64,000 bases of DNA from Eledone cirrhosa (taxonomy: Eukaryota): NCBI GenBank assembly GCA_964016885.1, contig OZ024745.1, positions 41,044,001 through 41,108,000 on the forward strand, given 5' to 3'. Of this stretch, positions 2,284-55,949 are shown piece by piece; the first letter of the stretch is position 1, and each line of letters opens with the position of its first letter. The notes under the pieces were generated by a model, which was not told where the DNA came from, did no database searches, and saw nothing but the letters and a program-made list of their open reading frames with translations. Position numbers and translations under genes: made by a program.

Positions 2284-2678
2284 ATATTGTTATACTTTGG
2301 GAGGGTCATGTTGCCAATAAGAAACACACGCACCAGTTGCTTTCACTTCAATTTATTATAATAAATTTATAAATTTAGGAATTTATAAATTTATAAATTT
2401 CTGGTTGGTTCCACAACCAGATAGTTGTTTATATATATATATATATATATATATATATATATATATATATATAAATAACTATCTGGTTGTGGAACCAACC
2501 AACCAACCAGAAATTTATAAAGTTATAAATTCCTAAATTTATAAATTTATTATAATAAATTGAAGTGAAAGCAAATGGTGCGTGTGTTTCTTATTGGCAA
2601 CATGACCCCAAAGTATAACAATATCGGTTTCAACACACGATTTCAGATAAAGATTCTTGCTAAACAAATTCAGAAACG
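2284..2678. mobile_element. fold-back PLE-derived insertion, family A copy 1
   Basis: Arms 2284-2430 and 2473-2624 are inverted; single-copy tail 2625-2678; flanked by (TA)n; same sequence at 20600 and 55424. Confidence 0.8.
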
Positions 2679-4432
2679 AAATATATATATATATATATAC
2701 ATGTATATATATATAGGGAGAGAGAGGGAGAAAAAAAGAAAGAAAGAGAAAGAGAGAGTGAGAGTGAGAGAGAGGGGGGGTAATGACATTACTGTTTGTG
2801 ATCAAAAGCGAGACAGTCGTCAAGAATAGGTGTAGAGTATATTGTATATTTATACTGAATAATTTTCCCGTCTCAAGTTTCAAGCCAATATATATTTGAC
2901 AAAGTCAAATGAAGATCGTCTTAATGTTGATACTATCACTCACAGAATTCCTTATGGACAGTCATATTATCAACTTGTCTTGATAAGACAACGTATAATC
3001 TCTCTCTCTCACTCTCTCTCTCTCTCTCTCTCTCTCTCTCTCTCTCTCTCTCTATATATATATATATATATATATATATATATATATATATATACATATA
3101 CATATATATATATATATATATCTATATATATATCTATATATATATATATATATATATATATATATCGATAAATGTACATATATATCCATGTATTTATATA
3201 TATATATATATATAATTATATATATATATATATATAAACACACACACACATACACACAGACCTACGCACACAAACACACATACATACACATGTGTATATA
3301 TATATATATATATATATATATATATATATATATATATATATATATATATTTATATATATATATATATAGATAAATCTACCAAAATATACGGTAGTGTCCA
3401 ATCCGTATGAAGAACTCAATGTAATCCAAATATCACGAAAAGAGAAGATGCATTCAAAAAATTTTTCGATGAAAATCACAGGAAAACAGAGTCAATATAA
3501 ATTATTAAAAACAATGAATAAAAACAAAGAAACAGTTCCTTATATTAAAAAATTCATCATTTTACGATCGTTTCTAGGATATATATGTATGTTCGTATCA
3601 TATAGATGTATATGTAAAAATTTTACAAACTATCAGAGGGAATATACATACCTACACATATATATGCTGTATTCAGAAATAATTGTTTCTACTTTTTGGC
3701 AAAAGGCCAGCAATTACCCAGTCAGAAATAATGATATTTGTTTATTGAAAAAAAAACAAATATTTATTATAATAGGTCTGTTTGGGAACAGATTTTGAAT
3801 TGACCAATAGAAAAGTAGTAAGTGGTCAAGTTGATAGAATAGTAGTAGTAAAAATTTAATTTAGGGGTAGAGGAATGTAGACTTCAGTTTTGAATGGAAA
3901 GAATATTTTGAATGAAAAGATTACGTTGGGGATGAAAAGAGGTCAAGCCGGTGAAAGGTACACGAAAATTTGATGTTATTAAAGAATAATTATAATGTTA
4001 AAATCGAAGGAGAATAACATTTTAGTGAGAAATACCAATCTTATTTAAAACATAAGGAATTTAGATCTATAAAAGGAAATTAAATTAATTTAATTGATAG
4101 GCATACTTATAGGGATAAATTTATATTAATTCATATAGATGTGATAAATAAGAGTTAGATGTTATTAAAGAATGTTGTTAAAAACGAAGGAAAACATTTT
4201 TTTGGGGGATAAATGTATTAGTGAGAAATAACAAACTTATATAGACTACAAGGATTTTAGATTCATAACAGGAAATTAAAATAGTTTATATGTATACTTA
4301 TAGGTATTCATTTTAGGAAAGGATAGCTGTAAAAGGGAAATAAAATTATGAAGTTCTCAGTAGTAAAATACTAATTATAAGTTAACTAAATTTAAAAACT
4401 AATTATAATAATTTGTAAAATATAAGTGTATA

Positions 4433-5559
4433 TTAATTAGGTTTATAATATTTGACAGTTTTTCTAATTCTATGATTGCACGATATAATTAATTCTTGTC
4501 GCTTATTTAATAGGATATCCTTAGATTTCATTATTTCAAAAAGTTCCTGGGAATATAATCTACACTCATATCTGTTATTTTGATAAGAGGTGGCCCTTTT
4601 GAGCACACTCCAGGTCAGGTTATAATCTATATTATTTTTTCTATAATTATTAATTATTTCAGCCAATTATTAGCTAATGCGGCATTTTAAAAACTGTTTG
4701 TGGGTATTAAATCTTACTTTAGATTGGTTAGAAGTAGCTCCTATATATAAATAAGTTGATTAAATGGAGCAGTATACCAAGTAACTAGTCTATTACGGTT
4801 TCGATGCTGTTTTTTTATTTTTATACGATGTATCCTGATGGGAATTTATTATACATATGTTTAGTTAGATTCAATGATTTAGGTATTTTAGCCAGATTAT
4901 TAGGAATTTTGTTAGTAATGTTAATAACATATATTGGAGTATTAGGATGAATGGTTATTTGAAAGTTATTATATTGTATGTGAGAAGAGGTAGAGAAATT
5001 AAGTTTTAAGTTGGTGTTTTGGGGTATAGTGTGAGTGGCATTTAGGTATGTATTTTTCATTTGGTGTTTGTTGGTAATATTGGGTTGTATGTTTGTAGTA
5101 TTATTGGTACAAGGTATATATAGTAATTTGTTTTTGTGGCCGCTTCTAGCTAAATCTTCGTTATAAAAGGTCGCATTTTTATCAAATACATCCTTGTTAG
5201 ATGAAAGGTTAGAAATCCTTAATGAGATATTATATGCTAGGTTTTTAAGGATAGATCTAGGGTGAATGGATTGTGAGTGTATGTAATGTAAGTTTTGGTT
5301 AGGTTTATGGTAAGGTTGATAGATACCCGTAGATAAGTCTAAAGTTATATCAAGGAAATTAACTGGTGTTTTCAAATGTAATAGTGAGACTATAATAGTC
5401 TTTGAGGAAAGTTCTAATAAGTTTTTTATCTTTTTCAATTTCTGATATGCTAAGGTTAGTGGAAAGAAGAAGACAGTCATCACGATATAAACCACCTTTA
5501 AGGTGGGGAAAAGAAGCATTTATGTTAAATAGAAGAAAGAGGCCCACAAGATCGGTAAT
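4433..5559 (-). pseudogene. inverted partial copy of PLE RT C-terminal half and GIY-YIG endonuclease
   Basis: ORFs 5359..5562 (GGLYRDDCL), 4821..5519 (VNFLDITLDL...YHKPN) and 4433..4666 (CRLYSQEL...LLNKRQELIISCNH) duplicate the + strand copy. Confidence 0.85.
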
Positions 5560-5759
5560 CACTACCGTATATTTTGGTAGATTTATCTACCTACTTTGCT
5601 CCTAATTTTATACAGGTATTCATATTTTAATATATATTTTTTATATTTATATATATTATTTTATAACTCCCTATATATATAGTTGAGCTCTCTTTCTTGT
5701 CCATTATCCATATTACAAAGGAAAAACAATACTTGGGAACTTCTTTACGTTCTAAGGAT

Positions 5760-54431: not shown

Positions 54432-55337
54432 TAGAAAGGATGAATATAAAATGAAAGTGCTTTTGTTAAAAAAGGAATTTATTAGGTATTGACATATGTT
54501 TCTGTAACAGACCGAATACCTATGTATCGCTGCTTGCGTAATCATATAATGTTAGCAAGCATTCGATAGCAAATGTATAATCAGTTGTCACTTCTTCAGA
54601 GATTTTGGATAAACTGGATAAAATCAGAAAAATTGAAGTATTTATATTAGTAAAAGAGGAAGGAACAGAGGGGATAGAATATGACAGATGGTAAAATAAT
54701 TTACTGCTAAACAAGTATATAATGGGTTTTTAATGAGAATACCATGAGTAAATCTAAATAAGAATTTTGGGAGTGTCAATTTTAATCTCTACTTGACCAA
54801 CTGGACAGTGGACAGGGCTGGTCATTTGGTGCAGTAGTATTAACTATAAAGTGTCAATTGGGGAAGGGGGAGATTTCGATTGCTACTAAATAACATCAAT
54901 GCTAGTATCCAGCTGGTATATGCACTAGGGAATTGAATCAAGAAATCAGAAATCTCATTTTATCTATAGCAGTTTGTATTAAAAGGTAAATAATAGAAGA
55001 GTTGATAGAATTAAGACTAATAAAGAATGTTCATATCTATTTTGACAATCAAACGGGGATAGAGACAGGCGTTCAATCCTGGTAGTATTTATAATATGAA
55101 AATGTAGATTTTAAGCGATGGTTACAGTATAACGATCGCTCTATTCTGTTATTTAATAAAATGTTTTTGGATTTCATAATACAAAATAATTCTACATTAC
55201 ATAATTTACAAAATTCCTGTCCATTGGAATATGGGAGGGCAGCCGCTATTATATCCCATTTTAGGTGAAATTGTTGGTTATTTTCACGCAGCTGCCAAGC
55301 CATGTCTGCAAGTGTTGTTACATAACGCTGGTTAACA
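54432..55337 (-). mobile_element. 5'-truncated Naiad-like PLE (GIY-YIG C-terminus and 3' UTR with hammerhead-like motif 54487-54603)
   Basis: ORF 55073..55303 WQLRENNQQFHLKWDII...CKLCNVELFCI...LLNNRIE...CNHR; CTGAAGA...GAAA CATATG TC; (TA)n on both sides. Confidence 0.8.
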
Positions 55338-55423
55338 ATATATATATATATATATATATATATATATATATATATATATATATATATATATATATATATA
55401 TATATATATATATATATATATAT

Positions 55424-55949
55424 ATATTGTTATACTTTGGGAGGGCCATGTTGCCAATATGAAACACACGCACCAGTTATTTCACTTCAATTTATTATAA
55501 ATTAAATTTATAAATTTTGGAATTTATAAATTTCCGGTTGGTTGGTTGGTTGGTTCCACAACCAGATGGTTGTTCATATACTGTCAAAGTTCTTTCGTCA
55601 CACATTCTGTGACCTCTTCAGTGACTTGTTTTTTCAAAACAATATGGCGTAGGACAGAACAAAGGAGAGGCACAAAAACAAAGAAAAGGATCCCCAGTCA
55701 CTGAAGAGGTCACAGAATGTGTGACGAAAGAACTTTGACAATATATGAACAATCATCTGGTTGTGGAACCAACCAACCAACCGGACATTTATAAATTCCT
55801 AAATTTATAAATTTAATTTATAATAAATTGAAGTGAAAGCAACTGGTGCGTGTGTTTCTTATTGGCAACATGACCCTCCCAAAGTATAACAATATCGGTT
55901 TCAACACACGTTTTCAGATAAAGAATCTTGCTAAACAAATTCAGAAACG
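55424..55949. mobile_element. fold-back PLE-derived insertion, family A copy 3, two hammerheads
   Basis: Arms 55424-55626 and 55696-55895; tail 55896-55949; (TA)n flanks. Confidence 0.85.
55697..55739 (+). ncRNA. minimal type I hammerhead ribozyme (mirror copy at 55583-55625, minus)
   Basis: GTCA CTGAAGA G GTCAC AGAATGT GTGAC GAAA GAAC TT TGAC. Confidence 0.8.

Follow-up and report, generated by a model that had tools for sequence, protein, structure and literature searches.

The window analysed here, a 64,000-nucleotide stretch of the Eledone cirrhosa genome (assembly GCA_964016885.1, contig OZ024745.1, positions 41,044,001 to 41,108,000 of the forward strand), holds three insertions of a repeat that we call Family A, each a head-to-head pair of arms that lies against TA tracts and carries a tail on one side only. 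On this anatomy Family A is very probably a Penelope-like element (PLE), most likely the 3' terminal repeat (pseudo-long terminal repeat, pLTR) of one, in three insertions that are heavily truncated at their 5' ends. That Family A has this identity and also inserts by two separate primings at one target is, taken jointly, a likely though less secure reading.

Layout of the Family A insertions

In what follows, the tail-bearing arm of each copy is called the forward arm (+) and its partner the inverted arm (-); coordinates are collected in Table 1. The original prediction placed the starts of the three copies at 2284, 20600 and 55424, directly after (TA)n, with arms of about 145, 115 and 200 bp. 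A window search for the start 22-mer confirmed this with exact plus-strand matches at all three positions, each immediately 3' of a TA tract, and the inverted arms measure 149, 117 and 203 bp. When as many as 3 mismatches were allowed, the 22-mer matched six times in the window and not once in 100 shuffles, the sixth match being a diverged copy, A-prime, at 15225, which had been overlooked. The start of the tail matched three times (2625, 20844 and 55896, all on the plus strand; shuffle mean 0.06).

In all three copies the forward arm extends 48-55 bp beyond the inverted arm, and this tail lies outside the inverted repeat. The inverted arm is identical to its partner in 143/146, 113/117 and 192/199 aligned columns in copies 1, 2 and 3, respectively (96-98%), and the total lengths are 396, 292 and 527 bp; no longer Family A copy occurs in the window. 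The short end falls on the identical base in all three inverted arms. The common tail of about 50 bp that had been proposed is present in every copy, but its end is not fixed, copy 2 stopping at 20891, 7-9 bp before the point that copies 1 and 3 reach. All six outer ends adjoin TA-type tracts, which make up 5.4% of the window; no duplicated non-TA sequence was found beside them, and any target-site duplication would be hidden inside the TA tracts. Copy 2 itself lies in a TA tract around which an older inverted repeat is centred (20411-20479 and 20915-20984; 70 bp, 91% identity).

At the inner side, a variable fold-back point had been claimed. The inner ends do differ among copies, but no copy has a single fold-back point, the two arms ending separately: at equal positions in copy 1, with 44 bp of TA in between, whereas the forward arm begins about 13 bp upstream of the inverted arm in copy 2 and 69 bp upstream in copy 3. 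The random 5' truncation that had been proposed is not supported by these three copies, whose inner junctions are not evidently random and sit on microhomology or palindromic motifs. Both arms of copy 1 halt at an alternating AT motif of the template, 6-11 nt downstream of the predicted hammerhead cut described below; copy 2 joins its arms, with an overlap of 3 nt, at an inverted repeat that belongs to the template itself, and the junction of copy 3 lies at the edge of hammerhead stem I, beside a 7-bp stem at 55626-55642. Private variants are common to both arms of copy 1 (three or more substitutions and a duplication of 8 nt) and of copy 3 (a 2-nt insertion), so that the arms of each pair go back to one source or were homogenised afterwards, and two unrelated insertions are an unlikely origin of any pair.

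Probable identity as a Penelope-like element

Read in the sense direction, copy 3 comprises 69 nt of upstream sequence, a hammerhead motif, an AT-rich leader of about 135 nt, an ATG, and then the short end and the tail end at +26 and +81, respectively; across Family A the tail end falls at about +73 to +81 from the ATG. As the original prediction had it, only the longest copy reaches the hammerhead, and the motif is present in both of its arms and in neither of the other two copies. The forward motif is predicted to form a stem I of 4 bp, a stem II of 6 bp and a very short stem III, with cleavage after 55735. A relaxed motif scan gave 11 matches in the window and 0, 1, 0, 0 and 0 in five shuffles, the core of A-prime turning up only in a looser motif list. 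Further hammerhead-like motifs, at 13182 (+), 14567 (-), 21864 (+), 28582 (+), 50201 (-) and 51382 (+), are probably solo remnants of other PLE families.

From the ATG, a reading frame is open through the tail in copies 3 and 2, and in copy 1 after a 3-nt deletion; it counts about 9 codons to the short end and 25-27 with the tail. A-prime, whose short end also adjoins a TA tract, keeps 25/26 nt from the ATG to the short end, the single change being synonymous, and the block that it conserves with Family A starts exactly at the ATG. It keeps 29/37 hammerhead columns but just 89/196 columns between the hammerhead and the ATG block. The leader contains GT and AG sites, with a retained intron considered as a candidate only. 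A stem-loop around the ATG and the tail was rejected, its stability being no better than that of shuffles (z +0.6).

These features can be set beside published PLEs. Strong 5' truncation is typical of PLE insertions, many of which carry a truncated copy in inverted orientation at the 5' end; other PLE traits are a one-sided tail of 30-40 bp, pLTR hammerheads and a bias to (TA)n (Craig 2021, PMC8557442). Minimal hammerheads occur in PLEs, and opposite-strand hammerhead pairs about 100-700 bp apart are probably truncated PLEs (Cervera and de la Pena 2014, PMC4209133). The same head-to-head truncated pLTRs with a one-sided tail are found in Pen2a_Av of Adineta vaga (Arkhipova 2013, PMC3846280) and in PAc/Poseidon of Anolis (Frangieh 2024, PMC11167929). 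Pen2a_Av and PAc/Poseidon also end within the first codons of an open reading frame (ORF), as Family A may do, and share with it the upstream hammerhead and the AT-rich target; the pLTR of Pen2a comprises the first 12 ORF codons, or 22 with the tail (PMC3846280). Unlike these elements, the Family A copies lack the ORF body. Moreover, the ATG lies about 135 nt downstream of the predicted hammerhead cut in Family A and inside the hammerhead in PAc, and the short end of Family A overlaps with TA whereas PAc initiates without homology (PMC11167929).

The same layout also occurs in the window on two elements with remnants of reverse transcriptase (RT) and GIY-YIG endonuclease, F (3370-9167) and B (21985-24260), which ties it to PLE coding sequence in this genome. 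In F the RT and GIY-YIG frames are decayed; the element can be aligned with most of an NCBI protein (best E 4e-98) and carries a DKT motif and a decayed CxCX5C linker that match the Hydra clade (PMC8557442); it appears to be a near full-length, decayed PLE of that clade. Its inverted arm measures 2.2 kb and its tail 125 bp. The forward copy starts at 5560, about 27 nt before the end point of its own tail, and spans almost one unit length; this start may mark the 5' end of the RNA, or a circular or tandem template. Stem II of the F hammerhead (core at 8982) is enlarged by an insert of about 99 nt. B carries an apparent endonuclease C-terminus, judged by eye. A PLE-type endonuclease C-terminal fragment at 55076-55336 (-) ends at the TA tract entered by copy 3; it shows in part the Hydra-clade set (DKT, CxCX5C linker, no CCHH, CxxC/CxH motifs) that F shows as well. 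It had no database match among 28 candidates and was rejected as part of Family A, tail, loop and hammerhead queries having no match there.

With the Hydra clade (including Hydra-1_Obim) Family A shares (TA)n targets and a type I hammerhead near the 3' end, as well as a short stem III and, in many cases, a U at the cleavage position (PMC8557442). However, its tail is without a motif found in B, C, D and F and in published Hydra consensi, two short Family A motifs are absent from the supplement of PMC8557442, and its peptide gave no alignment to the Hydra-type protein P0002. For these reasons, and because it offers no protein motifs, Family A cannot be placed in the Hydra clade. Non-LTR retrozymes are likewise short non-coding units with a type I hammerhead and are linked to PLE pLTRs, but they form head-to-tail tandems, whereas Family A is dispersed, head-to-head and variably truncated. 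Family A is probably an uncatalogued family of a known kind, set apart here without comparison to Repbase or Dfam.

Insertion mechanism and alternatives

How the pairs arose can be pictured as follows. The GIY-YIG endonuclease of the element, presumably supplied by a full-length master outside the window, would cut a (TA)n tract on both strands. Reverse transcription would then be primed by one of the free 3' ends at the short site, where pairing over a few TA bases would help, and by the other at the tail site. Both complementary DNAs (cDNAs), made from the same source copy, would halt early and their inner ends would be joined by microhomology, leaving a head-to-head pair with the tail on one side. 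Reverse transcription rather than cut-and-paste, as originally argued, is favoured because the tail lies outside the inverted repeat in all three copies, the lengths are unequal and a hammerhead is present. The two programmed priming sites that had been invoked also fit the copies, but this mechanism is already published for Penelope: in vitro, purified PLE protein cuts and extends both strands, and its two start sites within the RNA delimit the tail (PMC11167929). Since the PLE papers already report both the anatomy and the two start sites, the original prediction was largely a rediscovery.

The tail-less arm exceeds its partner by about 710 bp in B and about 1105 bp in F, which means that neither arm was simply copied from the other. 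Elsewhere in the window, short ends and tail ends also occur as solo copies (15225; 35966-36028; 28579-28702). Two primings at a double cut would explain these solo copies, the longer tail-less arms and the variants shared between arms, in agreement with the in vitro result. In twin priming of L1, two target ends likewise prime cDNA and an inversion is joined by microhomology. There the cDNAs cover different parts of the RNA, whereas in Family A they would both begin close to the 3' end and cover nearly the same stretch.

The alternating TA run at the short end is 4 nt in A, 3 in B, 2 in C, 3 in D, 5 in F and 6 in H. Given null means of 0.6-1.4, the summed overlap of these six families was reached in 0 of 300,000 simulations, although it counts against the test that the families were chosen after inspection from ten elements and that the end of H was set by eye; for Family A alone the overlap is not significant (P 0.06). 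Candidate I (14585-14627, with no clear tail layout), B2 (which equals family B), E and the older fold-back around copy 2 were left out. Tail ends overlap with TA by 1 nt in copy 2 and by 2 nt in F, the value not being measurable in copies 1 and 3. The TA microhomology originally claimed is supported for the short end only (2-6 nt, six of six families); the two short ends located at AT/TA motifs in other families (24260 and 52506) were both correctly positioned. The motif could serve for pairing or for cutting. Titles and abstract starts of the literature searched, with subscription papers outside the search, held no report of TA microhomology at PLE short ends. It is conceivable, though we would not expect it on present evidence, that in (TA)n-targeting PLEs the short site pairs its own TA motif with the cut (TA)n while the tail site starts unpaired, both ends of one cut priming on the same RNA or source and the (TA)22 of copy 1 being retained target between staggered nicks.

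A PLE could also have produced its palindromes by snap-back self-priming of one template, with the tail formed where the endonuclease resolved the hairpin through a cut in one arm at its internal TA motif. Self-priming (PMC3846280) and endonuclease resolution (PMC8557442) have both been proposed for PLE palindromes. This route would account for the private variants common to both arms, for the palindromic inner junctions (alternating AT in copy 1, an inverted repeat in copy 2, the 7-bp stem in copy 3) and for the short-end TA motif, as a cut site. Nevertheless, B and F would require trimming of the longer arm, and the solo copies together with the in vitro use of both sites are simpler with two starts; we consider snap-back rather unlikely. 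A non-autonomous, retrozyme-like PLE derivative without an ORF of its own, mobilised in trans by a PLE enzyme, is quite improbable. It would fit the failure to find a coding master, and animal retrozymes have been argued to derive from PLEs (bioRxiv 10.64898/2026.07.22.740005), but the window has no head-to-tail tandem hammerhead units, the lengths vary as under truncation and the block conserved with A-prime begins at the ATG; such an element would in any case share the same insertion mechanism. A miniature inverted-repeat transposable element (MITE) or foldback DNA transposon inserting at TA, to which the long inverted repeats, TA flanks and lack of coding sequence might point, was rejected and is hardly credible, as the termini are not both inverted repeat, the length is not near-constant, the ends are not precise (7-9 bp of variation on the right), a hammerhead is present and a solo arm exists.

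Several observations weigh against a PLE inserted by two primings. None of the Family A copies has RT or endonuclease sequence joined to it, and peptide and window searches found no coding master, so membership in the PLEs rests on anatomy. A 41-residue frame compared with longer proteins gave three candidates, none with E up to 10, and Pfam returned nothing for the 27-residue peptide. A weak match among 1.84 billion representatives (E 6e-4, 36% identity) was rejected as the master because it covers residues 646-674 of 964, whereas the start of the ORF would be N-terminal. The 27-codon frame taken alone is not significant (P about 0.13-0.15 by chance). A hammerhead family is absent among the Rfam matches listed for the window (150 of 181), so that the predicted ribozyme rests on our own motif scan. 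The tail, at 48-55 nt, is longer than the 31 nt of Pen2a and the usual 30-40 nt of PLEs, and the PLE studied in vitro initiated without homology to its target (PMC11167929). Finally, the tail-bearing arm of Family A is equal or longer at its inner end in all three copies, as snap-back predicts too.

Other repeats of the window and significance

Table 1. Positions of the Family A parts and of other repeated features in the window.
Feature	Position	Strand	Remark
Copy 1 inverted arm, 149 bp	2284..2432	-	ends at short site beside TA tract
Copy 1 central (TA)22	2430..2473		
Copy 1 forward arm	2471..2624	+	ATG at 2602, then 3-nt deletion
Copy 1 tail, about 55 bp	2625..2679	+	TA tract follows
Copy 2 inverted arm, 117 bp	20600..20716	-	
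Copy 2 forward arm	20714..20843	+	3-nt overlap with inverted arm; ATG at 20818
Copy 2 tail, 48 bp	20844..20891	+	
Copy 3 inverted arm, 203 bp	55424..55626	-	5' end is start of hammerhead stem I
Copy 3 forward arm, 269 bp	55627..55895	+	69 bp upstream unpaired
Copy 3 tail, 55 bp	55896..55950	+	TA tract follows
Minimal type I hammerhead motif, copy 3 inverted arm	55583..55626	-	core at 55621
Minimal type I hammerhead motif, copy 3 forward arm	55696..55739	+	core at 55701
ATG-initiated open frame, 27 codons	55870..55950	+	spans short end and tail; candidate ORF N-terminus
A-prime, diverged sister copy, solo arm	15225..15545	-	hammerhead core 15471, Family A short end, no tail
Motif-bearing tail, B	21985-22065		
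Motif-bearing tail, B2	49902-49962		
Motif-bearing tail, C	52507-52572		
Motif-bearing tail, D	51958-52022		
Motif-bearing tail, F	3370-3494		
Copies of the repeat of about 190 bp (among others)	539-727, 835-1006, 17810-18001, 29487-29662, 32042-32235, 32965-33314		
Copies of the repeat of about 190 bp (among others)	47329-47521, 51028-51221, 56696-56880, 60114-60305, 62941-63136, 63787-63984		

Other fold-back elements share the window with Family A. Families D and C occupy one long TA tract (51893-52572) with their tails outward, H (60561-61200) is an inverted-repeat element with a tail of about 97 bp, and more inverted-repeat elements lie at 61783-61905, 59038-59343 and 14312-14793. A motif, (T/A)GAG(T/C)(A/G/T)CT, is common to five of the eight tails tested (B, B2, C, D and F) and absent from those of A, H and a solo C copy, the pattern having been defined after inspection of the data and without a control. 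By eye, Hydra consensi published from coral and sea cucumber carry similar words at their ends, and the motif is a candidate for a conserved binding site.

The remaining repeats are of other kinds. An abundant repeat of about 190 bp (82-96% identity) resembles a short interspersed nuclear element by size and number, and a 45-bp piece of it sits in the inverted arm of F (3678-3722). A decayed element of the long interspersed nuclear element (LINE) type spans 37813-43300 (-), with an RT frame at 38474-40171 (Pfam RVT_1, E 1e-28) and an upstream frame at 40539-41357 that resembles an AP endonuclease by eye; older LINE-type fragments lie at 19229-19815 and 44200-45554.

In summary, the layout and the two start sites of Family A are already published hallmarks of PLEs and carry small weight as a discovery. 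The value of Family A lies in annotation, where remnants of this sort are readily mistaken for MITEs or microRNA hairpins; the Rfam matches listed include sub-threshold microRNA matches over copy 1. How PLE palindromes form is left open by the cited papers, and a genome in which many families have left many short copies is well suited to testing it. If the pairing model for (TA)n-targeting PLEs is true, it would tie microsatellite targeting to RNA-DNA pairing, unlike the homology-free initiation of the one PLE studied in vitro.

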